Under the pieces are notes generated by a model. That model made no database searches, was not told the DNA's origin, and was given only the letters and a program-made list of their open reading frames with translations. Made by a program: the position numbers and the translations under genes. Shown piece by piece: positions 3,901-64,000 of a stretch of 64,000 bases of DNA; within the stretch, counting starts at the first letter, position 1, and each line of letters starts with the position of its first letter. The stretch covers positions 14,384,110-14,448,109 of the forward strand of contig NC_134030.1 in assembly GCF_964204645.1 (NCBI RefSeq). Reading direction: 5' to 3'. The DNA comes from Tubulanus polymorphus (taxonomy: Eukaryota; Animalia; Nemertea).

Positions 3901-6490
3901 CTTATCATACGCTACTGATGCCCGTATAACTTCTGACTGTAAGGAGTTACAGAACCTGGATCGGATGGTTAGACAGGCAATGAATTTTGATTTTCCGGAG
4001 CGAGCCTTGGATGAGAAAGCAGAAAATTCGCAGAAAGACATGGCATTCCTTAAAAAGGCTACTCATTCTATTCAACTTAAAGAAGGCCATTACGTTATTG
4101 AATTGCCTTTTACAGATGATGATATCAAATTACCAGCCAACAAGGATCTCGCTTTGAAAAGATTAAAAAGCTTAGAACAAAAGCTAAGAGGTCAACCGCA
4201 GTTTAAAGCTGACTACGATAATTTCATGGCAACGATCTTAAAGAGAGGTTACGCGGAGTTAGTTCCTGAGAAAGACTTGAGCTGTGATGATGGATGGGTA
4301 TGGTACATACCATATCATGGCGTCTACCATGCACAGAAGAAAAAAATAAGAGTAGTTTTTGACTGCATGGCACGTTTTAATGGAGTTTCACGAATGAGGT
4401 ATTACTCCCAGGTCCCGCGATTTGACCAGCTATCTACTGGGCGTACTGCTTCGATTCAGAATGGAAAATGTAGCTATCATTGGCGACGTAGAGAAGATAA
4501 AAAGGACCTTAAAAGGATCGTGATTGTTTAAGATTTTATTGGTGGCCTGATGGCAATTAAGACTCCAAACCTCAGACCTGTTTGGTGCGGTTTCATCGCC
4601 TAGTTGTTCCAACATAGCTCTTCGTCAAACGGCCTTGGATTTTGCTGATGAGTATGATAGTGATGTTCTGGATGCAGTCACACGATGTTTCTACGTGGAT
4701 GATTGTTTGCGAAGTGAAGAATCTGTGTCAGATGGGATAAGGTTAATACGAGGCATTACATCTATCTGCGCGACAGGAGGGTTTAGAATGACGGGATGGT
4801 GCAGTAATGATCCAGAAGTCGTGGAAGCTGTACCTACGTCGGAACGAGCTGAAACCGATCAAGCGCGTCAGAGAGCTTTGGGCGTGACTTGGATATTGGA
4901 TTCTGATAGATTCGGTTTCACGGTTTCTATCAAAGACAAATCTCCCTTTCGACGTGGAATACTTTCCGTAGTGAGTTCGGTGTTCGATCCTTTAGGACTC
5001 ATATCACCGCATATTCTCCCTGGAAAAGAGCTGTTACAGGAGATATGTAAGAGAGGTCTAGATTGGGATACAGAAATAATGGGTGATTTGTTAGTTAAGT
5101 GGAAACGCTGGCAGGAAGATATCTCGCATCTGGAAAATTTGTCTGTACCTCGTTGTATCAAACCATCTGATTTTGGGAGCGTTATCTCAAAGCAAATCCA
5201 CTATTTCTCTGATGCGAGTGAGATCGGATATGGAACTGCGATATATTTGAGAGTGGTGAATGAAAGCGGCGATATTCATTGTCAATTGCTAATGGGAAAA
5301 TCGCGTGTCGCACCGCTTAAAAAAGTAACTGTTCCATGTTTGGAACTAAATTCAGCTGCTATGGGCGTCAAGATGCATGTTGTACTCCAGAGGCAACTGG
5401 ATCTGAAGTTCATTGAAAGCTTCTTTTTGAGTGATAGTGCATCGGTATTAAAATATATTAGAAATGAAAGCAGTCGATTCAAAACGTTTGTCGCAAATCG
5501 AATATCACTTATCCGAGAGGTGACATCTCCTGAACAATGGAGATTTGTTAATTCGTGTATGAACCCTGCGGATAAAGCATCAAGAGGAATGAAATAAGAC
5601 GATCCTAATCCTGAATTGTGGTTTCAGGGCCCTCATTTCCTGCATAAACCGGAGTCAGAGTGGCCAGTGGACCTAAGTTCGCAAACAAATATAAATGGCG
5701 ATGATAGTGAATTAAAGAAGGTGACGTGTGCTGCTTTCGCTGATGACACGCCAGAAAATGCTCTTGGAAAACTTATGAGCTATTGTTCAGAATGGGAAAA
5801 ACTAAGACGTTTTGTCGCTCATTTCATTCGAGTAAAGGATTTCCTTCGCTGGAAAGCCACTGAACGAAAACGGATCGATATTGGTCTTTGTATCGATACA
5901 CCAGTAGAAACTGAACGTCGTTCTGAAGTAGAAAAGATCCTGAAACGTTCTCAAGAAGGGAAAAACTTCATAACCTTGAATTTAGAATCTCTGAAAAAAG
6001 CTGAGTGTATAGGAATTATACTACTACTTCATAGCGAGCAACAGCACTACTTGAGCGAAGAGTTCAATCGTCTGGCTAGCGGCAAAACCGTTAAAAGGTC
6101 GAGCCCACTCTATAAGTTTGATCCGTTCGTTGAAAATGGTCTGATAGGGGTTGGAGGCAGATTGGAAAATGCACAAATACCTTATGATGCGAAACATCCT
6201 ATTATTAGTTCCTAAGTTGTCGACTCTGGCAGAGAAATTAATTCGACACACTCATATGCATACTGTCGGACATCTGGGAAAGAATGCAGTTCTATCGCAT
6301 TTACGGCAGAACTATTGGGTCATAGGAGCCAACAGTATTCTAAGAAAACTAATGTCATCGTGCGTTAATTGTATCAAATATAAAGGAAGATGTAATGAGC
6401 AAAAAATGGCAAACCTACCACCTGAAAGATAAGCTGTAGACCCACCCTTCACACATACAGGTGTGGATTACTTTGGACCGTTTGAAGTAA
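947..6490 (+). pseudogene. BEL/Pao gag-pol polyprotein, degraded (gag, Zn knuckles, protease, RT, RNase H, start of integrase)
   Basis: FSGSPLEY..F, KLNYLEQF, ELKERYG (gag); CFGCLGEGH..C..C..CQKLHPTILH; MDTG (protease); WYIPYHGVYH..KIRVVFD; FYVDDCL (RT); HYFSDAS..GYG, MGKSRVAP (RNase H); GGRLENA, HxxxxH..CxxC, GVDYFGPF (integrase). Many stops and frameshifts; truncated at 6490. Confidence 0.95.
2229..2817. mobile_element. Tc1/mariner (pogo-like) MITE inserted in BEL gag
   Basis: Imperfect TIRs CCGTAAAAACCGGCG / CGCCGGTTTTAACAG; TA duplication at 2227-2228 and 2818-2819; removing it restores ENLKRLIAKLPLFLHNRWR. Confidence 0.92.
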
Positions 6491-32571: not shown

Positions 32572-32629
32572 GTTGAAAGGTCGAAAAATAAATTCTCGCA
32601 CACTCGAATTTATTTTTCGACCTTTCAAC
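32572..32629. repeat. Terminal fold-back hairpin of copy 1 (24-bp perfect stem, 10-nt loop)
   Basis: GTTGAAAGGTCGAAAAATAAATTC-TCGCACACTC-GAATTTATTTTTCGACCTTTCAAC. Confidence 0.95.
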
Positions 32630-32721
32630 CTTTGATACGAAACAACATATTCCCTATTACTCTTAAAATATAAAAATGAATAACTTCTAAAATCAATTTT
32701 AATAAAAAATTTGATATTAAA

Positions 32722-33050
32722 ATGGAGAGTAAACAAATACACAGTGAGAACAACAAATCATATCTAGATAGAATAAAAGATACTACAAATGTCAAATCAG
32801 TAGATTATAAATTTAAGAAGTTAACAGAATTAACAATTCATAAGAAATATTTAATTACAAATATTAATACAGTTACTACCAAATATGGAGATAAATAAGT
32901 TATCCACTTAGAATATGAAGGATTAAAAGGAAATAAATATAAATTCAGAACATATTTACCAGATAGATTTCATAGATTATCAAGTGAAGATTTTGAAGAA
33001 TTATGTTCTGGTGATTTCTATTTCATATATAAGGGTAAGAATGAAAAATT
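32722..33050 (+). pseudogene. Disrupted paralogue of the 117-aa gene at 61886 (not in the ORF track)
   Basis: MESKQIHSENNKSYLDRIKD...FRTYLPDRFHRLSSED.EELCSGDFYFIYKGKNE, with an in-frame TAA near 32896 and a truncated end. Confidence 0.9.
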
Positions 33051-33060
33051 GGATATTAAA

Positions 33061-36000
33061 ATGGAAGCAAATAAGTACTACTGTTCAACATGTAAAGTTG
33101 ATATAGATAAATCTCAAAAAGCAAGACATAATAAAACTAAAACACATTTAGAGAATAAATTAAAGTTAAAATATAAAGATGATATATTAGAAACTAAATT
33201 AGATGAATTGAAGAATGAAAAAGAAACATACAAATGTGATACATGTAATCAATCATTCAGTGATAAAAGATATTATAAAGAACATTTAAAATCTAAAAGG
33301 CATATTAGAAATATGAATAATGATATTTTAGGTGAAGATTATTTTGATAATGATAATAATAAACCGAAGACAATTATAAGAATAAAAGATACTCTAAATA
33401 ATAAGAAATCATATATGGAAAATGTTAGAAATTATATTTATTCATTAGATAATAAAAAAAGAAATATAAATAACCGAAGCATTTGAAAGTGATATTGGAC
33501 CAGCTGCTATTGAATTTAAATTTCATAAAGGCAAAACATTAGAAGAAAATAAAAAACATTTAGAAAATATGAAAAATATTATAAGAATAATTACAGACGT
33601 AGAATACCCTAAGTTTAGTATATCGGCTAAAGTTAAATTTCTAAAATCTGAAGATAAACCAATATATAATATAAATTCTCATTCACAACATATCATTTCA
33701 AACCAGCATATAGATGATAAATTAGGTAAATGTTATAATGAAATGAAAAATAAGATAGAAGAGAAATATTTTGAAGGATCAGGTTTAATATTTGATGAAA
33801 TAATATTTACGACTTTACATGTATACAATACAAAATATAATAAGTTAACTAAATCAAAACCAATAGATGAAAATAATTAATCATATTATAAAGATGATAA
33901 TATAAATGGAACAAGTTATATCAAATTACCATTTAAAACTAATGCTGTTATAAATGTACAAAATTCTGATGATAAATGTTTTCTATGGACAATTATAAGT
34001 TGCTTACATCCAACAGAAGATATTACACATAGTTTTAGATTATCAAATTATATACAATTTGAAAATAATTATAGGATAGATAATTATCCTGTTAGAATTA
34101 AAAATATCCCAAAAATAGAGAGATAATAATATAAAGATAAATGTGTTTGATTTAGTGAAATTACCAAAAACAAAAGGTAATAATATTAAACATTTTACAT
34201 TAGAGCCTTTATACCTAACAAAAGATTATGATTCAAATGATGTTATAGATATAATATATTATGAGAATCATTATATGTGGATTAAAAGAATTGATTTATT
34301 TTTCAAATCAGAAAATGATTTTGATAATAAAATATATCTATGTAGAAAATTTATAACTAAATTCAGAACCGAAAGTGCATTATCAAATCAAAAACAATTA
34401 TGTGAAAATCATGATTATTGTAAAATAGCTTTACCAAATGAAAAGGATAAAGTATTAGAATTCGAAAATATGATTTCAAGAATAAAGTACCATCTGTAAT
34501 ATATGGAGATTTTGAATCACTCAATAAAGAATTAACTGATCAAGATAGAAAAGAAATATATTATAAAAGAAAGAAATTAAATTCTGAAAATGATATAATT
34601 GATTATTCAGATCCTCTAATAACAAATACAATTAAAAAGATTCATCAATCAGCTGCAGCTTTCGGGTTATATATTAAATCTGATTATCCAGAACTAATCA
34701 AAAGTGAATATTATAATTATAGAAATGAAAATGTAATCAATCATTTTTGTGACTTATTAATTGAGTATGAAATCAAATTTAGTAAACTATTAGATACAAA
34801 TAAAGAAATAGTTATGACAGAAGAAGATAAAGAAGAATTTGAGTTTGCTGATAAAAGTTATTATTGTGAAAAGATATATAATCTTAAAGATAAAAAAGTT
34901 AGAGACCATGATCATTTGAATGGAAAGTTTAGAGGTGCAGCACTTGAGAATTGTAACTTACAAGCTAAGAAAATTAACTTTGTTCCAGTAATATTTCATA
35001 ATTTATCAGGGTATGATGCTCATTTATTTATCAAACAGCCATGCCAAAAAATATAAGAGATCAATAATGAAATAGTAAGAGTAAATTTAATTAGATCAAA
35101 GGATAAAATACCAACATATAAATTTAAGATGTTAGCTAAAACATCTGAGAATTATATATTTTTCCAATTTGGGTGTCTAAGATTTATAGATTCATATAGA
35201 TTTTTAAGTTGTTCATTAGATAATTTATCAAAATCATTAGTTGATGATGAATTAAAACTATTAAAACAACACTATCCAAATAATTATGATTTTCAATTAA
35301 TGAGATATAAGGGAACAATTCCATATTCATTTTATAAATCGCATAATGATTTTAACAATAATGAATTATTAAAAGAACAATTCTATGATGAATTAAAAAA
35401 TGAATATGTTAAAGATGAAGTCTATGATAGAACATTGAATATTTGGAATCATTTTAGAATGAAAAATCATGGAGAATTAGTAGATTTATATCTAAAATCA
35501 CTTGCGTTATTATTAACTGATATATTCGAAAGGTTTAGAGATGTAAATCTAAAATATTTTAATATTGATCCATGTCATTGTTATTCTAGTCCAGGATTAA
35601 CTTGGGACTGTGGTTTAAAATTTACAGATATAAAAATGGATTTGTTAACAAATATAGATCAATTATTATTATTTGAAAAATCTATAAGAGGAGGCGTTTC
35701 AGGTGTATTAGGCGATTGATATGTCAATGTAAATGATAACCCTGGTTATAAGTTATTATATATAGATGCAAATAATCTATATGGTTGGGCAATGATGGAA
35801 CCTCAACCTTATGGAGTATTTGAAATAACTGAAGTTTTACAACATGAAAATAATGATAAATTTGATTGGAAGAAAAGAATTTTAGATATTGCAGATGATT
35901 CAGATACTGGTTACTTCTTTGTTGTAGATTTAGAATATCCTGAAGATAAAAAAATTTAAATCTAGAAATCTAGCTTACTGTCCCAAACATAAAACTGTAA

Positions 36001-37057
36001 CACATGAAGAATTATCAAATTATCAAAAAAGAATTAAACCTGAAAATCATATTCATACAGAAAAGTTAATGGTAACTCGGGAAGATAAATATAATTACGT
36101 AGTACATTATAGAATGTTAAAATTCTATTTGAATCAAGGAATGGTTCTAAAAAAGTACATAGATATATTTCATTCAGTCAATCTAAATGGTTAGAAAAAT
36201 ATATAGATTTTAAGACCAAACAGAGAACTAAAGCTTAAACTGATTTCGAGAAAGATTTCTTCAAGTTAATGAATAATGCATTCTATGGTAAGACTTGTGA
36301 AAATATTAGAAATAGAAATGATATTGAGTTAGTTAGTAATGGTAAAAGAATTAGACATTTACAAACATATCCAAAATTTATTGGTTACAGAATATTTGAT
36401 GAAAATTTTGCAGCTGTAAAAATGAAAAGAACTTCTATCGAATTTAATAAACCAATTTATGGTGGTGCTTCAGTTTTAGAAATATCAAAATTATTAATGT
36501 ATGAATTTTACTATAACGTATTACAACCTCATTTTGGAGAAAAGCATATAGAAATCTTATATTTTGATACCGACAGTTACATATTAAAGATAAAAACTAA
36601 TAATATCACAGATGATTTGAAAACATTAAAACATCATTTTGATTCCAGTAACTATCCAAAAGCTCATGAATTGTTTAACAATGATAATAAAAAGGTGCCA
36701 GGGAAGTTTAAGGATGAATTAGGAGGTGAAGAAATGATAGAGTTCATTGGAATTCGATCTAAAATGTATAGTTATAAAACCAAAACTCATGAATCAAAGA
36801 AATTGAAAGGAATTATCAAAAGCGTAGTAGAAAAGAATATTCATTTCAAAGATTACGTCAATTGTATATTCAATGAAGAAGTTAGAAAACACAAGATGAA
36901 ATGTTTAAGATCTGAGTACCACGAGATGTTTATTGAAGAAATTGAAAAGGTAAGTCTAAATCCATTTGCTTATGGCTGCAATTTAGAAGAATACTTAAAA
37001 TTTAAAAGAGAAGAAACAAAAGAAAAGGAAATAATGAACAGGATTATAACGTGTTAA
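33061..37057 (+). pseudogene. Family-B DNA polymerase, protein-primed type, with N-terminal C2H2 fingers and an endonuclease VII-like insert (frameshifted)
   Basis: VIYGDFES, RDHDHLNGKFRGAA..NCN, IFHNLSGYDAH, RFIDSYRFL, YIDANNLYGWAM, KLMNNAFYGKT, YFDTDS. Confidence 0.93.
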
Positions 37058-37086
37058 TCAAATTTTAATAAAAATATGTATCATAA

Positions 37087-37727
37087 ATGGAAAGTACACA
37101 AGCACAAATTATCAATATTACAAACAATAATAATGGTGTTATAAATATATATCAGAAGACATGTTGCAAATGTAAAATAAGTAAGCCATTTACAGATTAT
37201 TATAAACGTAAGATTGGTAAAGATGGTTTACATCATAATTGCAAAAGCTGTTATAATCAGAATAATCAACAATATTATAGAGATAATATTGAAGCACGCA
37301 ACGATAAAATCAAGCAATGGAAGGAAAATAATCCAGAACGCGTTAAAGCGTATCAAAATAGATATCATAAAGAAAGATATCAAACAGATTTTAATTTTAA
37401 AATGAAACAATGTCTAAGTAATAGATTAACAAAATTATTCAGTAAACAAGCGCATTCAGTTACACTCTCTAATTTATTGGGGTGTTCAGATGAATTTCTC
37501 AAATCATGGAATGTATATCAATTCGACGATAAAATGAATGAAAAAAACTATGGTGAATACTTTCATATTGATCATGTGTTGCCGATTTCTAAATTCAACA
37601 TGAATGATGAACACAATCAGAAGTTGATATGGAGCTGGAGAAATTTAAGGCCTCTTGAAAAGAAGGAAAATATAATTAAATCAAATAAACTAGATTTTCA
37701 GTTATATTTGGATCAGCTGTGTAAAGC
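37087..37727 (+). CDS. HNH-type (homing-like) endonuclease with N-terminal CxxC...CxxC; the ORF then reads on into a LINE fragment to 37872
   Basis: KTCCKC...CKSC; LLGCS.EFL; NYGEYFHIDHVLPISKF...WRNLRPLEKKENIIKSNK, as in HNH nucleases of large DNA viruses. Confidence 0.75.
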
Positions 37728-39213: not shown

Positions 39214-42200
39214 TCCGGCATCAGACCACAATTAGGTTAGTAGCTCGAAGATGCGTTGGGCCGGACCCCAAAAATAGTACCTAGAGTGAAGAAGAGGTCC
39301 CCCATTAATGTTGCTATAATTTCTGCAAATGGGATAGGTAACGAATTTCGGTTATATGTATGAAATCCATTGATCCTGAGGGACAGATTGATGATGAAAT
39401 AAGGGATTCCCTGGACTTTTTTTGCTTGGAGTAAGAGTACCAAACACGGTGGGGGATTCCCTTAGATATTTGGCTCGGATGTACTGGCATACCTGTACTG
39501 GGATACCCCTCCTTTCTAAAGGTTTGATTATTTCAAAAGTTAGGTTGGGAATGTGGGGCGAAAACCACTTCAATGCGTAACTAAGATGTTGGCCTATAAG
39601 CCATAAGCAGGATTTCCCATGGATTTACACGCTTATATATGAACTAAACTCTCGAATTTCTTGTTTTTACTATAGGATATAGAAGATTTTGGAATAGTGG
39701 TCTGAGCTCTGACAGCCAATACAGCCAAAATGACAAATTTTGAGGTTTTGATGAAATTTCACAAATAATTTTTATATTATACATCTTTTGCACATAGGCC
39801 CTATAAGTCGTCTTGAGGCATTCATTGAGACCTAATTTGCTGAATTTAATCAGCTTCATGGTAGGATTTGGTAATATCTTTGCTTGAAGAAGGCTTGAAT
39901 CGCAGATTTCGGTCAACTTTTAGGCATAGATCGTAAGATATTTTCTCGTAGGCTCGGTCTAGGCTCATATCCCATTTCATAAAGGCCATCCTTGCCCATG
40001 CAGAATAATCACATTAATTCAGCTTTCTTTGATTTAGTTATCTAGTTTGGCTGACTTTTTGGTGCCAGATACTGTCAGGAATTTAAGGGGTAGAGGAAAT
40101 GCATATTTTCGTTGAAACCATGGCAACCGAAAGGACATTGTCAGAGGCCAGTTGTGATATTTTTTCTAACTAGTACTGGTGACAGCTACGCTTGGTATAT
40201 AAAAGGCAAAGGCCTGTGGACGCAGTAGGGTGCATTCGAATTAGGCCTTGTGGGCAAGAAAACGCCAAATCTAAAGGTTTCAGCCAATTCGATGATGTAA
40301 ATGGCATTTTTTTCAGAAAATGCTTAAAGATTGTGTTTCTGATTTTTATCCATAGCCATATATTTATATCCATCAGTGAAAAAACCTATAAAGTATTCAG
40401 AAAATGCTGTATAATTGTTTTATTCATATTTTGAAATGAATGTTTGACTTAGATGATATTGATAGAAAACTTGGATTTTGTTTGGGTACTAGTCAGGCAT
40501 CAGACCACAATTAGGTTAGTAGCTCGAAGATGCGTAGGGCCGGACCCCAAAAATAGTACCTAGAGTGAAGAAGAGGTCCCCCATTAATGTTGCTATAATT
40601 TCTGCAAATGGGATAGGTAACGAATTTCGGTTATATGTATGAAATCCATTGATCCTGAGGGACAGATTGATGATGAAATAAGGGATTCCCTGGACTTTTT
40701 TTGCTTGGAGTAAGAGTACCAAACACGGTGGGGGATTCCCTTAGATATTTGGCTCGGATGTACTGGCATACCTGTACTGGGATACCCCTCCTTTCTAAAG
40801 GTTTGATTATTTCAAAAGTTAGGTTGGGAATGTGGGGCGAAAACCACTTCAATGCGTAACTAAGATGTTGGCCTATAAGCCATAAGCAGGATTCCCATGG
40901 ATTTACACGCTTATATATGAACTAAACTCTCGAATTTCTTGTTTTTACTATAGGATATAGAAGATTTTGGAATAGTGGTCTGAGCTCTGACAGCCAATAC
41001 AGCCAAAATGACAAATTTTGAGGTTTTGATGAAATTTCACAAATAATTTTTATATTATACATCTTTTGCACATAGGCCCTATAAGTCGTCTTGAGGCATT
41101 CATTGAGACCTAATTTGCTGAATTTAATCAGTTTCATGGTAGGATTTGGTAATATCTTTGCTTGAAGAAGGCTTGAATCGCAGATTTCGGTCAACTTTTA
41201 GGCATAGATCGTAAGATATTTTCTCGTAGGCTCGGTCTAGGCTCATATCCCATTTCATAAAGGCCATCCTTGCCCATGCAGAATAATCACATTAATTCAG
41301 CTTTCTTTGATTTAGTTATCTAGTTTGGCTGACTTTTTGGTGCCAGATACTGTCAGGAATTTAAGGGGTAGAGGAAATGTATATTTTCGTTGAAACCATG
41401 GCAACCGAAAGGACATTGTCAGAGGCCAGTTGTGATATTTTTTCTAACTAGTACTGGTGACAGCTACGCTTGGTATATAAAAGGCAAAGGCCTGTGGACG
41501 CAGTAGGGTGCATTCGAATTAGGCCTTGTGGGCAAGAAAACGCCAAATCTAAAGGTTTCAGCCAATTCGATGATGTAAATGGCATTTTTTTCAGAAAATG
41601 CTTAAAGATTGTGTTTCTGATTTTTATCCATAGCCATATATTTATATCCATCAGTGAAAAAACCTATAAAGTATTCAGAAAATGCTGTATAATTGTTTTA
41701 TTCATATTTTGAAATGAATGTTTGACTTAGATGATATTGATAGAAAACTTGGATTTTGTTTGGGTACTAGTCAGGCATCAGACCACAATTAGGTTAGTAG
41801 CTCGAAGATGCGTAGGGCCGGACCCCAAAAATAGTACCTAGAGTGAAGAAGAGGTCCCCCATAAATGTTGCCATAATTTCTGCAAATGGGATAGGTAACG
41901 AATTTCGGTTATATGTATGAAATCCATTGATCCTGAGAGACAGATTGATGATGAAATAAGGGATTCCCTGGACTTTTTTTGCTTGGAGTAAGAGTACCAA
42001 ACACGGTGGGGGATTCCCTTAGATATTTGGCTCGGATGTACTGGCATACCTGTACTGGGATACCCCTCCTTTCTAAAGGTTTGATTATTTCAAAAGTTAG
42101 GTTTGGAATGTGGGGCGAAAACCACTTCAATGCGTAGCTAAGATGCTGGCCTATGAGCCATAAGCAGGATTTCCCCTGAATTTACGCGCTTATATATGAA

Positions 42201-42269
42201 CTAAACTCTCGAATTTCTTGTTTTTACTATAGGATATAGAAGATTATGGAATAGTGGTCTGAGCTCTGA
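39214..42269 (+). repeat. Head-to-tail tandem array of a ~1279-bp unit (2.4 copies), possibly a non-autonomous Helitron concatemer
   Basis: Units at 39214-40492, 40493-41770 and 41771-42269; junctions read ...GTACTAG|TCAGGCATC; duplicated ORFs in the track confirm near identity. Confidence 0.9.
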
Positions 42270-42672: not shown

Positions 42673-43050
42673 GGGTGTTACTAAAACTATGCACTACTAA
42701 AACGAAGACCGAAGACCTATGCACTTTGCGAGACTAAAACTATGCACTACTAAAACGAAGACCGAAGACCTATGCACTTTGCGAGACTAAAACTATGCAT
42801 GACTAAAACGAAGACCGAAGACCTATGCACTTTGCGAGACTAAACCTATGCATGACTAAAACGAAGACCTATGCACTCATTAGAAATCATAACTAGGGGC
42901 GCTATCTGTATATTCAACCACCTCTGTCGATGAGTATAGGCAATAGGGACCTACTCGATATAAACATACATAAGGAAACGTAAAATGTTCGTTTATTTTT
43001 CTCGGGTGCATAGGTCTTCGTTTTAGTAGTGCATAGTTTTAGTAACACCC
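42673..43050. mobile_element. MITE with a TIR-derived 53-bp internal tandem array
   Basis: 38-bp TIR GGGTGTTACTAAAACTATGCACTACTAAAACGAAGACC and its reverse complement ending at 43050; 53-bp unit ~3.7 times; a further partial unit at 43062-43102. Confidence 0.85.
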
Positions 43051-45317
43051 ACACACGCAAAACTAAAACTATACATGACTAAAACGAAGACCTATGCACT
43101 TTTACAAAACTTACTTCAAACATGGAATTATTCACGCAACCACTTCGGGGAAGCTCCAGTTACGACTATGCCAACAAATGTACGTATTTACGACGAATGA
43201 AACGAAGTTTTCATCTATAAATGTGCGATTTTTATTATATTCGATTTGCTGCGTTGTCGTTGCTAATACATTATTTTCATCAATACACGTTTACGATTCT
43301 ATTTTACGAAGCAAAGTTAGCCTATATATTATAAGGAACAGATTAAGGGATTTATTTTCGATTTCGTTTCACAATTCACGTGGTCAGAATGGTCCCTACA
43401 AATTCTCGTTTACTATGCTGTTCTGAACTTATATTATATATTTGTCGAACACATTACGAGGCCGTTGCTTCAGAGAATAATGGCAATTTAACGTAACGAA
43501 ATATCCATTATGGAAGGCCGAACGTAGAGTTTACTATGGTGGCTACAAAGTGTCAGTCTGGACAACAATAGCATTTGGTCCGGATATACGGAAAAGAATA
43601 TATAACCGATCTATGAATGAATTATCATGGAAATATGTTCCAAGGGTTATTGCGCAACGCTCCGTCACTATTATAACTATCCCGGTCATAATTCAGTACG
43701 GTATGCCCTACCGTAATAAATCAAAAACAAAATACTACCTGGTACTCGAAAATTCCTAAATGCATCTTTCACATACTTTGGAAAATATTCAACTGAAATA
43801 ATTTGAAAGTTTCCTCAATTTATGTTGATAACTGCTACTGCCTACCGGCAAATGTACTATATGCCTGACCATGAGCCAAAATGTCTTTCTAGAATACACG
43901 TTCAGTACAGCAATAAAATTGGTCAGACAATTGAAGTAACATATTCCCCCAAAGCATGTTTAATCACGTTATTTACAGTATTTTGACTCAACTATTTCGT
44001 TTACCGGTACGAATACGCTAGAAATATTCGTTACGGTATAACGGTACTAACCGTAGAGCTTGCCGACTAACGCCAGTTCTACTGCAATTCCTCTGATTAC
44101 GGAGCCGGATCTAGGTCGAGGTCCAGGCAGTTATCCAGAAAAATCTAGACGAGGGGATTACTAAAATTGAAAAATGTCAGTCGAAATCAGTTTCAGTTGT
44201 TCTACAATTAGGCGTTATTGTAACTGTTTTAATTCGGGTACCGGTAGAGATTTTTAACTTTGGTCTTTCTTCAATCCCGAAGTCGGAAAATTCCAAGGTC
44301 CCGATTTTTTCAGTTCGTTTTCCTATCAAAATCTGTCTCAATTCGGATTCTAGAAATCGGAAATTCGGCTAAGTGGGCTAGAATATATGTCCCGAACGTT
44401 TCAAAGCAATGCATTTTTTCCATCTCTAAGTCAGTTCTTTTTAAAAAGATCATCGTTACTGGCGCGCGGTGTCTATGGTAGATTGATTTTTCTGTCGACG
44501 GACAGTTAAGCACATGTTTACAATATTAGTCGGCTATAAATTCTTCATTTTTACAGATTGAAACTCAACTTAAATCTCACCTGTTTACATCAGCCCCGTC
44601 GTTATATTGAAAGAAGTTAAACGTTTTCAGAAGAACCAGAGCGATACAAAAGCGAGGTAAATTTTGATAAGGGATTGAATTATGGAATTTCGGTTAAACA
44701 TGCCAATAGGCCCTACAACAATTACATATCGGTATAGGAAATCTAAGAAAACGAAGATCATAGCTGTAAAACGAATTAAATCGATAGATGGGCACCTTCT
44801 TTTTGAAGGATATCCAAAAGAAGAAAAAGAAGGTAATGTCATCGGTGCAGTAGACATTCTAAATTAAATTGGTATATACTAAACCCATGTAAGTCATTTA
44901 TGCCATTGTATAATTATTTACATTTTCTAGACGGAAACAAATTGGTCGTTCTGACGAAGATCACAAACCTGGGTCAATTGATAAAGCCAACATGGCGTAA
45001 AGGATTGTCTGTTCTTGTCAATAACAATTATGATTTAATTAAATAATATAATGTTCAATCATGTTTTATTCAATCATTTATATTCAAGTTAATTTGATAG
45101 TGATCGAAAATCAATGGATTTCTATCAGTGATTTCAGGATATCATGTTTATTTGTTTTTTAAAAGGAGCATTTATTATCTATTCACGTATTCCTAAATCT
45201 ATAACATCTAACAAAATGCCTTATGCGCTTACAAAGATTACACCTAGATATCAATGCATGACACTTGTGTGAATAGACCTGATCACTTACCACACCGTTC
45301 ACATTTATCATGGAAGT

Positions 45318-55150: not shown

Positions 55151-57287
55151 TGTTTCTTTATGACACGATTTAAGCTGTTTGTGTCGACCGACAATTCTGT
55201 AATTTCACACAGGTATTCTCTACTTGATGTAGATGGTGCAGCTTGGTTTATATTTGATTCCGATGGTTATAAGTGCTCTAATTTGGTTAAAAGATAATTA
55301 ACGTTACTCGCTAGTTCAAGCCGCTGTATAGCGCGTTGCTACGACGACGCTCGATCAACATACTGGTACTCGCTGTGTAATACTGAACACGTATATACCT
55401 GTAGATATTGATCGTACTAGCACCGGTTTTAGATAGCGCGCGCGCTGATCGGTCTTAACACTTCTCGGAACTGCTGTGCTAAATGCTGAGAGGCCGAATC
55501 TATGCGCAATCATTTATTGGGCTCGTCACATTTGATAGTGAATGGATAAATAACCGGTGTCAATGCCGGTCGCTACTCCCCATCAGTATAACTCATCAGT
55601 ATAAAAAATAATTCTTTTGAGTTTTTTTTTTCAATCCCCGAAGTTGTTGTTACTATGTTGACCTCGCCGTTTTATAAGCTTACCGATGATTCTTCTAGTA
55701 TTTTCAGGGTCACAAGACATGACGAAGTCGCAAAGTTTTGTACAAATTTCACGAAACAAACAATTATTTAGGCGGCACCTGATCTATTGATTAATTATGA
55801 TAAATAATGTTTATTTCATTAAAAATTTGTTTTATTCAAACACTACTTTCATCGCAGATAGCGTGATCGGTAGGCCCTACTATTCTACGGTAGGACATGG
55901 ACTCTTTCATGTGGTAGGCCTATTACAAATGATACAATCCGCGTGTCCGTGAATAAGTGACACGTGGTGGGGCGGGTTGTGAGGAGCATCGAAACTAATC
56001 CGTCACAAATAATAGATAGAAAACAATACCTTAAGAGGTTAACTTTTATTAACATCATTACCAAATCAAAACCTGCACATCCTATCATAAATAGAAATTC
56101 TAAGAATTTATTTCAAAGAATAATAAATTACGTCTAAATATTGGGATTCGAACTCGTAGCATCGATTCAGGTGCCTTTCCCAAAGCGGGTATCCCGCGGG
56201 GAAAACCCATTACTATTTATATCGAGAATCGCCTTTTTGCGACAGCGCCACGGCGCTGGAGCATATTAAGTTGATCGAACCACCTGGTGTCTTCCAATAC
56301 CACCACCTAGTGGGCTCAAATTCAAGTTCAAATATACTTTATTGATACTCATCAAATACTTAATTATACTTAATTGTTACTTTATTCAATACTTTATTGT
56401 TCCCAGTACTGCAAATACATCGGATTTCCGCAATTAGGTAGACAGAACACAAATAAAATCAAGAATCTTTTAGTATTCAGAAAACAACGTACATGTTATT
56501 TTTCAACTTTAATTAGCAATGAGATAATTTTTTGCGACACTCACGGATGATGCGCATTCCCTTTCTGGAAGGCTGATCGGCTCTTCCCTGAAAAATTAAT
56601 TTCTGAATCGACGTCCCGTAATGATGAATACTATTTTTAGATCCCCTGATTTCAAAATTCAAAAATATAGATTGATATGAACCTTAGGTCTACCCTTGTA
56701 ATTAACAAATTATTCGAAAGCAAAGATCTTGCATTCGAGTTTATTCATTTTTTAAGCAGTTTCTTTATTTCAAGCCGCCGAATTGATTGTCTAAATCTCT
56801 TTGCTCTTCTCGGAACTTGTATTCAATTAAATTTTCTATTCTCATTCTACAATATGTACGTGAATACTATCAACGGTAGCATTTGTTTCTTTTCATTTCG
56901 TTTTTCATAATGATTTTGTAATATTTAAATCTTCATTCTATCGCGACGGGTGCTTCCGCTTTTAAACTGTTCGTTTGTTACTTCCGATTTTGTAATCTTC
57001 ATTAATTTATTCATTCTTTATGACTTCTCTCTCTCCAAAATCGGAATAATTGTATCCTTAGATACAATAGGATCTTGATTTTTAATGACTTTGCAAAACC
57101 ACCTGTCGCAGTATATTTCCTTTTAGAAATATACCTTGTTGACAGCGAGTTCGGTGAATGAAACAGAAACAATTACACAGAAACCCATCATGGAAAGTTT
57201 CTTTCTGGTTACCCTAAGTCGTGGCAACGGTTCCATGACCTGTGTTGCAGCCTTAGCTTTTCGTTTCTTATGTGCAGCATTCACGTT

Positions 57288-57554
57288 AGTAATAGGGATA
57301 ATAGGCTTTCAAGCCAAAGGTCGAACGGTCGAGCTCGTAAAAATGAAAAACATGAAAATAATAACAATTTCTACTTGAATTACTCGCGAAACTCATTAAA
57401 ATGAAAAATAAATTCTCACACGCTCGAATTTATTTTTCATTTTTATGAGTTTCACTCCTAATTCAAGTAGAAATTGTTATTATTTTTATGTTTTTCATTT
57501 TTTACTCACCCGCCCGTTCAACCTTTAGCTTGAAAGCCTATTATCCCTATTACT
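57288..57554. repeat. 267-nt imperfect terminal palindrome (fold-back hairpin) of copy 2
   Basis: AGTAATAGGGATAATAGGCTTTCAAGC... pairs with ...GCTTGAAAGCCTATTATCCCTATTACT; loop TCACACGCTC at 57416-57425. Confidence 0.97.
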
Positions 57555-57815
57555 CTTAAAATATTTATATACATGAATAAAATATATATGAATAACATAT
57601 AAATTGATAGATTATTCAATATAAAAGTGTGAGTAAAGTGTGAGCTCTTATAGAATAGATATAAAAGTATATATTTACAACATTATTTCAATATTCATAT
57701 TTGTGTGAGTTAGATTTTTAAACATTAAAAGTGTTAGTAAAGTGTGATTGAAATAATACATAATATAAATCATTGAACTTCTAAAATCAATTTTAATAGA
57801 AAATTTAGTATTAAA

Positions 57816-60800
57816 ATGGAAGCAAATAAGTACTACTGCCCAACATGTAATATCAATATACATAAATCCCAAAAATCAAGACACAATAAAACTAAAACAC
57901 ATTTAGAGAATAAATTGAAACTAGAATATAAAGATGATATATTAGAATCTAAATTAGATGAATTAAAGAATGAAAAAGAAACATATAAATGTGATACATG
58001 TAATCAATCATTCAGTGATAAAAGATATTATAAAGAACACTTAAAATCTAAAAGTCATGTTAGAAATAAGAATAATGATATTTTAGGTGAAGATTATTTT
58101 GATAAAGATAATGATAAGAAACAGAAGACAATTAAAAGCATAAAAAATAAATTAAACAATAAAAGACCATACATGGAAGATGTAAGAAATTATATTAATT
58201 CATTAGATAATAAAAAAGATATAGAAATAACCGAAGCATTTAAAAGTGATATTGGTCCAGCAGCTATCGAGTTTAAATTTCATAAAGGAAAAACGTTAGA
58301 AGAAAATAAAAAACATTTAGAAAATATGAAAGAAATAATAAAAATAATAACTGATGTTGAATATCCTAAAATCAGTATATCAGTTAAAGTAAAGTTTATA
58401 AAATCTGAAGATAAACCAATATATAATATAAATTCTCATTCACAACATATTATATCTAAACAACATATAGATGATAAATTAGATAAATGTTATAATGAAG
58501 TAAAAACTAAAATAGAAGAGAAATATTTTGAAGGATCTGGTTTAATATTTGATGAAATAATATTTATGACTTTACATGTTTATAACACAAAATATAATAA
58601 GTTAACTAAATCGAAACCAATTGATGAAAATAATGTATCATATTATAAAGAACCAGATATTGAAGCATCGAGTTATATTAAACTACCATTTAAAACTAAT
58701 GCTGTAATAAATGTACAAAATGAAGATGATAAATGTTTTCTATGGGCTATAATAAGTTGTTTACACCCAGTTGAAGATTATAAACAACATAATTTTAGAT
58801 TAACTCATTATAAACCATTTGAAAATAATTATAAGATAGATAAGTATCCTGTTAGAATTAAAAACGTCCCAAAGATAGAAAGAGATAATAATTTAAGAAT
58901 AAATGTATTTGATTTAATCAAATTGCCAAATACAAAAGGTAACAATATAAAACATTATACATTAGAACCTTTATATCTATCAAAAGATTATGATTCAAAT
59001 GATGTTATAGATATATTATATTATGAGAATCATCATATGTGGATTAAACAAATAGATTTATTCTTTAGAACAGAAAGTGATCACCATAATAAAATGTATC
59101 TATGTAGAAAATGTTTACTTAAATTCAGAACTGAAAGTGCATTATTAAATCATAAACAATTATGTGAAAATCATGATTATTGTAAATTAGTTTTACCAAA
59201 TGAAAAAGATAAAATATTAGAATTCAAAAAATATGATTACAAAAATAAAGTACCATTTGTAATATATGGAGATTTTGAATCATTAAATAAAGAACTAACT
59301 GATCAAGATAGAAAAGAATTATATTATAAAAGAAAGAAATGAAATTCTAATGAAAATGATTTTTCAGATGAACCACCAAAAACAAATACTATTAAAAAGA
59401 TTCATCAATCAGCTGCTGCTTTCGGGTTATATATTAAATCTGATTATCCAGAACTAATTGAAAGTGAATATTATCATTATAGAAATGAAAATGTAATCAA
59501 TCATTTTGTGACTTATTAATTGAATATGAAATAAGATTTAGTAAATTATTGAATGCAAATATAGAAATTATAATGACAGAAGAAGATAAAGAAGAATTTG
59601 AGTTTGTAGATAAATGTGATTATTGTGAAAAGATATTTAATTATAAAGATAAAAAAGTAAGCGAACATGATCCTTTGAATGGAAAGTTTAGAGGCGCAGC
59701 ACATGAGAATTGTAACTTACAAGCTAAGAAAATTAACTTTGTACCAATTATATTTCACAATCTATCAGGATATGATGCACATTTATTTATCAAACAGTTA
59801 TGCCATAAAATAGAAGAAATTAATAATGAAATAGAAAGATTAAATTCAAATAGATCAAAAGGTAAAATACCAACTTATAAATTTAGAATGTTAGCTAAAA
59901 CATCTAAGAATTATATATCATTCCAATTTGGTTGCCTAAGATTTATAGATTCATATAGATTTTTAAATAGTTCATTAGATAACTTATCAAAATCATTAGT
60001 TGATGATGAATTAAAGATATTAAAACAACACTACCCAAATAATGATGATTTTCAATTAATGAGATATAAAGGCGCAATTCCATATTCATTTTATAAGGAT
60101 CATAATGATTTCAATATAACTGAATTATTGAAAGAACAATTCTATGATGAATTAAAAAATGAATATGTTAAAGATGAAGTATATAATAGAACATTGAATA
60201 TTTGGAATCATTTTAGAATGAAAAATCATGGGCAATTAGTAGATTTATATTTTAAATCAGATGTATTATTATTAACCGATATATTCGAAAGGTTTAGAGA
60301 TGTAAACCTAAAATATTTTAATATTGATCCATGTCATTGTTATTCATCACCAGGATTAACATGGGATTGTGGATTAAATTTTACAGATATAAAAATGGAT
60401 TTGTTAACAAATATAGGTCAATTATTATTATTTGAAAAATCTATAAGAGGAGGAGTTTCAGGTGTATTAGGTGATAGATATTTCAATGTAAATGATAACC
60501 CTGGATATAAGTTATTATATATAGATGCAAATAATTTGTATGGTTGGGCAATGATGGAACCACAACCTTATGGAGTATTTGAATTAACTGAAGTTTCACA
60601 ACATGAAAATAATGATAAATTTGATTGGAAGAAAAGAATCCTAGATATTGCAGATGATTCAGATACTGGTTACTTCTTTGTTGTAGATTTAGAATATCCT
60701 GAACATATTAAATTTAAATCTAGAAATCTAGCTTACTGTCCAGAACATAAAACTGTAACACATGAAGAATTATCAAATTACCAAAAAAGAATTAAACCTG

Positions 60801-61871
60801 AAAATCATATTCATACAGAAAAGTTAATGGTAACTCAAGAAGATAAATATAATTATGTAGTACATTATAGAATGTTAAATTTTTATTTGAATCAAGGAAT
60901 GGTTCTAAAAAAAGTACATAGATATATTTCATTTAGTCAATCTAGGTGGTTAGAAAAATATATAGATTTTAACACCAAACAGAGAACTGAAGCTAAAACT
61001 GATTTCGAAAAAGATTTCTTCAAGTTAATGAATAATGCATTCTATGGTAAGACTTGTGAAAATATTAGAAATAGAAATGATATTGAGTTCGTTAGTAATG
61101 GTAAAACGATAAGGCATTTACAATCATATCCTAAGTTCATTGGTAACAGAATATTTGATGAAAATTTAGCCGCAGTTAAAATGAGAAGAACATCAATGAA
61201 ATTTTAAACCAATCTATGTTGGCGCTTCAGTTCTAGAATTATCAAAATTACTAATATATGAATTCTATTATAATGTATTACAACCACTTTTTGGAGAAAA
61301 ACATATAGAAATATTATATTTTGATACCGACAGTTACATATTAAAGATAAAAACTGATAACATAACTGATGATTTAAAAACATTAAAACATCATTTTGAT
61401 TTCAGTAATTATCCTAAAGATCATGAATTTTTTAGCAATGATAATAAAAATGTTCCAGGGAAGTTTAAGGATGAATTAGGTGGTGAAGAAATGATAGAGT
61501 TCATAGGTATTAGATCTAAAATGTATTCATATAAAACTAAAGAACATGAAGCTAAAAAGTTAAAAGGAATAACCAAAAATGTAGTAGAAAAGAATATTCA
61601 TTTCAAAGGTTACATCAATTGTATATTCAATGAAGAAGTTAGAAAACATAAGATGAGATGTTTAAGATCTGAAGATCATGAAATGTTTATTGAAGAAATT
61701 GAAAAGATAAGTCTAAACCCATTTGATGATAAAAGATATATTTTAGATGATGGAATTCATACAGTTGCTTATGGATGTAATTTAGATGAATACTTAAAAT
61801 TTAAAAGAGAAGAAACAAAAGAGAACGAGATAATGAAAAGAATTCTAACGTGTAAATCAAATTTTAATTAA
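57816..61871 (+). pseudogene. Family-B DNA polymerase, protein-primed type, with zinc fingers and an endonuclease VII-like domain; one stop (59340) and frameshifts near 59.5 and 61.2 kb
   Basis: CPTC..H...H and CDTC..H...H fingers; DDKCFLWAI; VIYGDFES; CDYC...EHDPLNGKFRGAAHENCN; FHNLSGYDAH; SDVLLL; YIDANNLYGWAM; KLMNNAFYGKT; YFDTDS; PFDDKRY. Confidence 0.95.
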
Positions 61872-61885
61872 AATATGTTATTAAA

Positions 61886-62239
61886 ATGGAGAGTAAACAA
61901 GCGCACAGTGAGAACAACAAATTATTTCTAGATAGAATAAAAGATATAACAAATGTAAAATCTGTAGATTATAAATTCAAAAAGTTAACAGAATTAACAA
62001 TCCATAAGAAATATCTAATTACAGATATGGTTACAGTTACTAATAATTATGGAGATAAATTAGTTATACACTTAGAATATGAAGGATTAAAAGGAAATAC
62101 ATATAAATTCAGAACATATTTACCGGATAGATTTCATAGATTATCAAGTGAAGACTTAGAAGAATTATGTTCTGGAGATTTCTATTTCGTATACAAAGGT
62201 AAGAATGAAAATGGGCACCATGAAATAGATTTCGAATAA
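61886..62239 (+). CDS. 117-aa protein, possible OB-fold ssDNA-binding or replication accessory factor
   Basis: Intact ORF directly after the polymerase; beta-rich pattern FKKLTEL...Y.I...YGDKLVI.L...YLPDRF; function is inference. Confidence 0.6.
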   Translation: MESKQAHSENNKLFLDRIKDITNVKSVDYKFKKLTELTIHKKYLITDMVTVTNNYGDKLVIHLEYEGLKGNTYKFRTYLPDRFHRLSSEDLEELCSGDFYFVYKGKNENGHHEIDFE

Positions 62240-62256
62240 GAAAATATGTAAAATAA

Positions 62257-63017
62257 ATGGTAGAATTAAAAGAATACAGAATATTTGTTGATTCTAGAAG
62301 ACTTACAGATTATAAATCACATAATTTACTAGTACAATTAGATAGAGAATTCAAGAATTGTGTAGATTTAAAATTAGTTAATATAAGTTTATGCAATTCT
62401 TTTTATAATATATCGAATAAAACTGTTGAACATAGAGCCTTTTTAATTTTTGATAAAAGTAAAAATGAATGGTCCTCTATATTCTTAAAACCGGGGTTAT
62501 ATAATTTAGATACATTAGTACAAGAAATTAATAGAAAAGCCTGGCACAAATTAGGTAGTAGTTCTGGGTTTGGTATTAGATTTTTAAAAAGTGAGAGTTC
62601 TGATAGAATAAAGGTAAGGTTGTCTAATAGTGAAAAACATAAATTTATGGTAAAAAGCCTATAGCTAAACTGTTAGGAATTCTTCCAGATAGATCTTTTA
62701 CAAATATTGACGCTACTACACCAAACTTAATACCTTACACACATTTTTATATTTATTGCAGTTTAATCGATCCTACAAAAACATTCGAAGCAACTAAAGA
62801 TATAACTTGTAATTCTGGTTTACTAAACATTTTACAATTGAAGAATGTTAAAGAATTTGGAACGCAAATAAATTATAATTTAACAGAATGTGATTTCAAA
62901 CCATGCATTCCTCATTTTAATAATTTTAGATTAGAAATTAGAAATCATAATGGATACTTAATTGATTTAAATAATTTCCCTGTAATTTATGAATTAGTTA
63001 TAAGATGTAGAGAGTAA
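62257..63017 (+). pseudogene. Minor capsid (penton, single jelly-roll)-like protein, one frameshift near 62655
   Basis: IFVDSR..., LVNISLCNSFYNI, PGLYN, then in a shifted frame AKLLG, FYIYCSLID, RLEIRNHNGYLIDLNNFPVIYELVI, matching the Polinton penton pattern. Confidence 0.7.
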
Positions 63018-63034
63018 TTTTTTTCACTATATAA

Positions 63035-63373
63035 ATGAATATAACTGTTGGACCGAGTATATGTTTTGGGTTTGATTTTAAACATGGTAAAGAAATAAGA
63101 ATTAAACTAAATGATGTAATTACTGATATAAAAAGTAAATCATTTAACAATGCACCAATGATTGATAAAGAAAATTATAATATAGAAAAAGTAATTGATT
63201 TAATTAAAACGCCTTTAGAATATTATGAATTAAATGAAGATGGAATTATTGATGATATTAAAAACATATTAACGAAAATATATGATAATCATGAAAGTAG
63301 TAATGAAATAAATGTTGAATTAATCATAAATAAGTTAACTAAATATTTTGATGATAGTAATTTTTTTGAGTGA
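63035..63373 (+). CDS. Hypothetical 112-aa element protein
   Basis: TATAAATG start, co-oriented, same composition as neighbouring genes. Confidence 0.6.
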   Translation: MNITVGPSICFGFDFKHGKEIRIKLNDVITDIKSKSFNNAPMIDKENYNIEKVIDLIKTPLEYYELNEDGIIDDIKNILTKIYDNHESSNEINVELIINKLTKYFDDSNFFE

Positions 63374-63587
63374 TAATAAGTGGATAATAACTGGATTATA
63401 TAATGGAGCATTACTATCAGTTGGAACTGTTGGTTATTCAATGGTATTAAAAAAAGTATTCAAAATGGGAAGTGTTAATGTTGATAGATTTGATATAAAT
63501 GATATTTTAAAATTAACATTAGCAGTTACTTTATCTAATTTAACTATTGATTATTTGGAAAAACAAAAATATATTCCTCCCATATAA
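63348..63587 (+). CDS. Small protein with two hydrophobic helices (putative membrane or virion protein)
   Basis: GLYNGALLSVGTVGYSMVL and ILKLTLAVTLSNLTIDYL segments; start codon uncertain. Confidence 0.6.
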   Translation: MMIVIFLSDNKWIITGLYNGALLSVGTVGYSMVLKKVFKMGSVNVDRFDINDILKLTLAVTLSNLTIDYLEKQKYIPPI

Positions 63588-63611
63588 ATGCGTAATTATT
63601 TTACTAAATAA

Positions 63612-64000
63612 ATGGCTTCTGCAGTTATAACTATAATAGAATCGGCAATTGTTAACGCTTTGGCATTTACTGGTGGTGGATATTTATTTAAACATATTGA
63701 TGAAAATAGTTCATTAGGAGAACAAAGAAGACATAACTTAGCATTAGAGAAATACAATAAAGCTGCAGAAGAATATAGTGAAAAGAGGCAAAACTATATG
63801 GATTATATTAACAAGGAATTATATGATCAGAAGATTTCACATAGAGATTTTCAATTAGTTGATGATGCAATGAGTTTATATAACGCGGTAACCAATAAAG
63901 AAAAATTACATCTATACAAACCTAAATTATCAGATTATTATACCCCAAGTAAAGAACAACAGAAATATGAAATAATTTGGATTTTAGGTGGAACAGTTAT
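63612..64000 (+). CDS. Putative membrane-anchored coiled-coil protein, runs off the window (not in the ORF track)
   Basis: MASAVITIIESAIVNALAFTGGGYLF...EQRRHNLALEKYNKAAEEY...PKLSDYYTPSKEQQKYEIIWILGGTV; open to the window end. Confidence 0.75.
   Translation, partial: MASAVITIIESAIVNALAFTGGGYLFKHIDENSSLGEQRRHNLALEKYNKAAEEYSEKRQNYMDYINKELYDQKISHRDFQLVDDAMSLYNAVTNKEKLHLYKPKLSDYYTPSKEQQKYEIIWILGGTV

Follow-up and report, generated by a model that had tools for sequence, protein, structure and literature searches.

To our knowledge, it has never been demonstrated by what means Polintons start and maintain their ends; in the standing model, the two ends pair into a panhandle. Vertebrate Mavericks have an (AGT)2 end motif, according to the accessible text of PMC8097293, in which neither 'hairpin' nor 'palindrom' occurs. 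Terminal palindromes are already known from related protist viruses, the Halocafeteria virophages and PLV of subtype 4, where they abut the virus-host junction and a putative hairpin role has been proposed for them; in the subtype shown as a figure they are 52 nt long, and they mostly accompany non-pPolB elements (10.64898/2026.07.28.741278, main text). No word in the main text of that preprint begins with 'mismatch' or 'imperfect', and its supplements may bear on this point. Among terminal-protein replicons, the closest working analogue is the Streptomyces telomere (Tap/Tpg), whose 3' strand folds with sheared G:A pairs and whose fold-back templates the repair of a shortened 3' end (available part of PMC5449611). 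The left end of MVM is a 3'-terminal hairpin with a GA-containing mismatch, occurring mainly in one orientation (PMC1185569, likewise in part). Finally, in the excerpted NMR structures of PMC10085684, the context pyrimidine-GA-purine forms sheared, cross-stacked pairs.

Here we show how a 267-nt imperfect palindrome makes up the exact left terminus of a Polinton-type element within a 64,000-nt stretch of DNA, hereafter the window. Like Polintons and Mavericks, this element has a protein-primed family B polymerase (pPolB) with terminal-protein and OTU regions adjoining its end. Its terminus starts with AGT, close to the (AGT)2 motif of vertebrate Mavericks, but here the end itself is the palindrome, with nested length forms. 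As in the Halocafeteria virophages and PLV, the palindrome abuts the junction with unrelated flanks; it differs in measuring 58-267 nt, in accompanying a pPolB rather than a non-pPolB element, and in its strand-biased mismatches. Streptomyces telomeres consist of several small palindromes with GNA loops and depend on the Tap primase, whereas here a single long stem with tandem G.A goes with a B-family polymerase. Instead of Tap/Tpg end patching, the element encodes a pPolB with its own terminal-protein-like domain, and as such it is not a member of the Streptomyces type. In MVM, GA opposite GAA forms an asymmetric spacer read by NS1, whereas the sites described here are symmetric (2x2); neither this asymmetric spacer nor, among the eight element ORFs scanned, the HUH/NS1 nickase of a parvovirus origin was found. 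Bubble 1 and the tip resemble the CGAG block of tandem sheared G:A pairs in that each strand reads pyrimidine-GA-purine, but the blocks sit isolated in an AT-rich stem, and their sheared geometry is a prediction. In the literature covered, which took in neither most subscription papers nor Repbase entries, we came across no description of Polinton ends with strand-biased mismatches or nested tiers; within that same coverage, the Halocafeteria preprint alone offered a direct precedent for Polinton end hairpins or for sheared pairs in viral hairpins. What we describe is a real and inherited structure that is mechanistically suggestive, and whose function is proposed.

The hairpin marks the end of a high-copy element

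The hairpin starts with AGTAAT and its inner arm ends with ATTACT. When the arms (57288-57415 and 57426-57554) are aligned, 13 non-Watson-Crick pairs and one 1-nt bulge remain, and 57288-57554 folds into a single long stem at -100.9 kcal/mol, far beyond chance (z -23, 0/100 shuffles). The initial annotation, made from the letters of this DNA, had described two CTC bubbles and a loop ending in CTC, all of which lie in the arm alignment where it had placed them (Table 1). Its 3-nt bubbles are indeed present in the window copy, but the core common to copies is only 2x2, TC opposite TC, and occurs three times: in bubble 1, in bubble 2 and at the base of the tip loop.

Table 1. Features of the element and of its second copy in the window
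Feature	Position	Strand	Remarks
Second copy, hairpin	32572..32661	.	58 nt, perfect 24-bp stem, same tip, no bubbles
Second copy, pPolB (broken)	33045..37106	+	88.7% identical to 57800-61905
Terminal hairpin	57288..57554	.	267-nt imperfect palindrome, exact left terminus of the Polinton-type element
Perfect terminal stem, 27 bp	57288..57314	.	Partner 57528-57554
Two GGTYGA-type direct repeats, outer stem	57318..57332	+	Candidate protein-binding sites, from sequence
Bubble 1, outer half	57334..57336	-	CTC opposite TCA (57506-57508); minus strand reads T.G, then tandem G.A/A.G
Bubble 1, inner half	57506..57508	-	
Bubble 2, outer half	57383..57387	-	Partner 57454-57458; CTC (57383-57385) opposite TCC (57456-57458)
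Bubble 2, inner half	57454..57458	-	In shorter copies, contributes to the tip loop
Tip loop, 10 nt	57416..57425	-	Ends in CTC; third TC/TC site (minus strand GA/GA)
Three GTGTGAG copies	57627..57709	+	Complementary to tip sequence 57415-57421
pPolB, first piece	57816..59342	+	Zinc fingers, terminal-protein-like domain (Ser241), OTU-like domain (Cys307, His406)
pPolB, second piece	59549..61207	+	Pfam DNA_pol_B_2, E 1.9e-15
pPolB, last piece	61491..61871	+	C-terminal sequence type as in intact relatives (by eye)
Small ORFs of the element	61886..63998	+	Element runs off the window

Copies were compared through reads only: raw 150-nt reads of one run with the same species label, unphased and with 12% of the run read, where reads less than 80% alike or clipped were not counted. 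Such reads count the descendants of few master copies rather than events. At 57287/57288, 2,014 of 8,953 reads exit into unrelated flanks (1,635 + 379 before 57288/57287, agreement 0.34-0.36), and read depth is 2,939 inside the element against 8 just outside, a difference of about 370-fold. Therefore, a high-copy element truly ends at 57288. The depth at the tip amounts to 1.8-2.6 times that of the first gene, as could result either from an element with two ends or from copies that are truncated. A free-standing MITE was rejected: the depth is unbroken across the inner end at 57554 (2,346 to 2,386), and host-like loose ends at that end fall outside the six best-supported loose ends.

The element is filed as Polinton-type on its protein-primed family B polymerase and on the terminal-protein and vOTU domains at the N-terminus of pPolB, and is known here from its left part only, its right end lying beyond the window, where the second inverted repeat and the 6-bp target duplication of Polintons would be expected. 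Genes for an ATPase, a protease or a capsid would likewise lie outside the window, and none appeared in the closest relatives, whose contigs are short. An rve integrase is absent from the window's part of the element and present in L005, a relative with a pPolB that is about 80% identical. The end motif AGTAAT, shared by the window element and the related loci L004 and L007, is one base off (AGT)2, which along with (AG)3 is an end motif of Polintons and Mavericks. Elsewhere in the window lie remains of Pao-type and Harbinger-type transposons; Pao elements are mostly animal, and these neighbours point to an animal host. A 1,278-nt unit occurs three times in tandem at 39214-42269, and a 53-nt tandem repeat comes next at 42675-43100.

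The polymerase keeps features of protein priming

In the window copy the pPolB gene is broken into three pieces, starting 262 nt inside of the hairpin. Across 81 aligned proteins, Ser241 (80/81), Cys307 (80/81) and His406 (79/81) are near-invariant. In a structure model (pLDDT 77.5, pTM 0.41), the serine of the terminal-protein-like region is flanked by the final helix and strand of an alpha/beta domain, as described for the terminal-protein fold in the available part of 10.1101/2024.03.18.585575. The model matches polymerases of adintovirus, MELD and mavirus, with viral matches at E 5e-17; its PDB matches are weak and consist of Y-family polymerases (best E 0.006), a resemblance that fits the fold described in that same source. 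Because of the near-invariant residues and the match of the model to viral pPolB, protein priming has likely been retained.

Several smaller observations concern the other genes. A small gene that follows the polymerase in the first copy (61886-62239) precedes it in the second (32722-33045), and also in L004 (344-685) and L007 (586-933), so that gene order differs between subfamilies. The small ORF at 63612-63998 has 25 homologues at 35-78% identity and belongs to no Pfam family, and none of the 67 candidates for its family in viral contigs was a member.

Mismatches are inherited across copies

Letter changes were called when present in at least 20% of reads, giving 40 changes in all. At nine of the 13 mismatched pairs no such change occurs on either side. 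The remaining four vary: 57397 is private to the window copy, with 92% of reads differing; at 57383, the leading C of bubble 2, 55% of reads carry a G instead and so close the pair; 57510 is changed in 62% of reads, again closing the pair; and 57354/57487 is polymorphic. The outer half of bubble 1 shows no change at this threshold, the tip loop varies at 57418 and 57422 only, and 57527 is deleted in 222 of 1,641 reads. As such, nine of the 13 pairs cannot be put down to sequencing error or to decay private to this copy, an explanation that we accept for 57397. The bubble mismatches are inherited across copies, which is inheritance and not proof of selection. This agrees with the initial annotation in that the mismatches are not random decay, since their positions do not differ randomly between copies. 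The core bases, however, are not significantly better conserved than the stem, with 0 of 12 varying against 32 of 267 positions overall (P=0.21).

The stem itself co-varies. Of the 12 inner-arm positions that vary, eight lie opposite an outer-arm position that varies as well (hypergeometric P=1e-5, from unphased reads); among these 12 inner-arm positions, seven are compensated, two close a mismatch and three break a pair. The pairs of the terminal stem change together, at 51%/53% for 57298/57544 and 49%/48% for 57303/57539, where the inner-arm reads can be taken as anchored because depth continues across 57554.

Bubbles as split tip loops

Besides the full-length hairpin, the reads reveal shorter forms. 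A joint of 57388 to 57453 with two letters between is found in 187 reads and is symmetric about the axis; other joints connect 57343 to 57453 (160 reads), 57330 to 57403 (115) and 57334 to 57540 (11). By eye, each loop of the 57388-57453, 57343-57453 and 57334-57540 forms is composed of the two halves of a bubble, the left one before the right, and these three loops resemble the tip loop. Because the shorter forms use both halves of a bubble as their loop, the bubbles are the split tip loops of a nested series of hairpins. Growth at the tip is the simpler direction for such a series, with loss in the other direction as a second option. In 69 reads, 57435 and 57445 are joined on opposite strands, a variant whose tip is either inverted or deleted.

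A second copy of the element spans 32572-37106. Its inner arm ends at 32661 and its outer end is lost, and its tip loop is that of the main copy with two differences. Thus, the bubbles are optional tiers: absent from this second copy, and not kept in L007. GTGTGAG occurs seven times in the window against 3.9 expected, with four of the seven within 300 nt; the copies of Table 1 are absent from the second copy of the element and variable in reads.

On the opposite strand, the bubbles read as G.A and G.T pairings

Eleven of the 12 strand-distinguishing mismatches are G-free on the plus strand (one-sided binomial P=0.003, the sites not being independent). The minus strand, which carries the 3' terminus at the left end, folds at -109.5 kcal/mol and thus 9.5 kcal/mol better than the plus strand at -100.0 kcal/mol. 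On this strand five C.A mismatches turn into G.T, and TC/TC into tandem G.A, with bubble 2 reading tandem G.A/A.G plus G.T. At two of the three sites, bubble 1 and the tip, the context is pyrimidine-GA-purine on both strands, and the flanks of bubble 2 are mixed. The fold model and the sequence context predict that the G.A and G.T pairings of the minus strand stack. On the plus strand, A.C outnumbers G.T by 5:1 here and by 8:1 in L007 (combined P=0.004). The bubbles had been thought of as functional unpaired pyrimidines; a single-stranded fold is still likely, but on the better-folding minus strand these sites are purine-rich G.A and G.T. What reads as a pyrimidine bubble on one strand can, in other words, amount to a motif of stacked purines on the other.

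The same strand bias would be expected from RNA, in which G.U and tandem G.A are also common. That a minus-strand transcript folds at 57288-57554 is nevertheless highly improbable, with a stem that ends exactly at the last base of the element, and with none of the eight Rfam matches reaching its gathering score. miRNA families were rejected, as every one of the eight matches lies under that score.

Closed-end inversion and self-priming as less likely explanations

Hairpin ends of the poxvirus or AAV type would alternate with a complementary flop form, which the initial annotation expected to have GAG-rich bubbles. On neither arm are flop letters present in at least 20% of reads, and the loose ends with host flanks at the inner end number at most 379 (at most 16%) versus 2,014 at the outer end. 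The 150-nt reads speak against an inversion of the whole hairpin, an inversion of the inner tier only being beyond their reach. The missing flop form argues against a closed-end inversion of the poxvirus or AAV type, and inversion of the whole hairpin is largely refuted. Of the proposal of single-stranded or closed-end DNA, the terminal structure stands and a single-stranded fold is likely, but not the closed-end inversion; for nicking or packaging sites we found no supporting evidence. Taken together as plus-strand pyrimidine bubbles kept open, or a covalently closed end, with flip and flop forms and sites for nicking or packaging, this explanation has in its favor that the bubbles are inherited and have a motif in common. 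We consider it very unlikely given the absent flop letters, the few host flanks at the inner end and a plus strand that folds worse than the minus strand.

Could the folded 3' end itself prime synthesis, as in parvoviruses, with the bubbles spacing a resolution site? The 3' end of the minus strand is paired perfectly for 27 bp with the template continuing beyond, the origin at the left end of MVM contains a GA/GAA mismatch (PMC1185569, available part), and a model of this kind has been proposed for the ends of Halocafeteria virophages and PLV (10.64898/2026.07.28.741278, main text). Against this, the polymerase keeps its terminal-protein and OTU motifs, no Rep/HUH family matched among the eight element ORFs scanned, no flop was seen, and insertions end at the outer arm rather than at the tip. 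We therefore regard self-priming as rather improbable.

The end hairpin is a feature of the clade

The related locus L007, with 78% polymerase identity, has a complete end hairpin of 257 nt that runs from AGTAAT to ATTACT. L004 retains the inner arm of such a hairpin and L008 the outer arm, so that hairpin parts are found in three of the six closest loci (L004-L009); in the other three (L005, L006 and L009) less than 200 nt lies upstream of the match. Among 103 loci screened for inverted repeats, most distant relatives have no end hairpin, many contigs stopping short of the end; the distant loci L085 and L102, which have full terminal repeats, have no such hairpin. L007 has no TC/TC sites, its strands fold equally (-69.4/-69.5), its transversion mismatches run the opposite way (3 against 6), and its tip reads C-GAA-G on the minus strand. 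As judged from these sequences, the end hairpin is a feature of the clade, and these particular bubbles are a feature of the family in this host. In viral contigs, the tip pattern had no match, and the outer-stem pattern had four matches that lack hairpin similarity to the window.

Paired GGTYGA-type repeats lie about 30-45 nt from the end in the window element, L004, L007 and L008. At their variable place, C is favored on the outer arm and T on the inner one, so that a G.T recurs on the minus strand.

It may be that the hairpin matters and the bubbles do not, being leftover halves of tip loops carried along by few master copies, with the strand bias arising from strand-biased deamination or from a loop motif copied three times. 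The core conservation (P=0.21), the bubble-free second copy, the different bubbles of L007, and the shorter forms that use bubble halves as a loop all accord with such neutral relics. However, the mismatches persist beside compensated stem pairs, and the G.T bias recurs in L007. Furthermore, strand displacement would leave the 5' end single-stranded longest, for which the opposite bias is to be predicted. On balance we think this explanation unlikely, though a serious contender.

A proposed 3'-strand fold-back at protein-primed ends

So what exactly would the hairpin do? The explanation that we put forward, and hold to be about evenly poised between right and wrong, is that the 3' strand folds back to serve protein-primed ends, with the bubbles as inherited repeats of a tip-loop motif that read as tandem G.A. 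During protein-primed replication, the displaced single strand would fold at its 3' end, where sheared and stacked G.A pairs may render the stem compact and nuclease-resistant. The fold would then provide a duplex end locally, along with a template on which a 3' end that had become shorter could be re-extended, by which the last 27 bp could stay perfect, and new stems would be added at the tip, each splitting the old loop into a bubble. Speaking against a function of the bubbles are the bubble-free second copy, the lack of these bubbles in L007 and the core conservation of P=0.21. The equal folding of both strands in L007, its opposite transversion mismatches and the mixed context of bubble 2 also weigh against our explanation. 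Moreover, re-extension of the 3' end without erasing bubble 1 cannot explain the compensations that lie deeper than bubble 1.

More tentatively, and to our mind doubtful in this full form, the ends of a Polinton clade may have come by convergence to resemble Streptomyces telomeres. Each would be a long fold-back of the 3' strand that grows in nested fashion at its tip, with tandem sheared G.A blocks recognized by the polymerase or terminal protein of the element itself, and that protects, repairs and primes the end with no panhandle needed. Together with protein-priming features, a 3' end that folds on itself would be a local alternative to the panhandle, and it names short motifs that can be tested with oligonucleotides. 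Even if the bubbles are relics only, such ends have left a record of their growth in the nested series.

Palindromes in distant relatives

Two palindromes were observed in distant relatives. L054 has a 181-nt hairpin, 93% perfect, at the 3' end of its polymerase match (2286-2466). In L002, an internal 184-nt imperfect palindrome (4657-4840) is bounded by ACTACT and AGTAGT, and consists of two direct copies of a double mini-hairpin located between the integrase and the polymerase of this distant Polinton.
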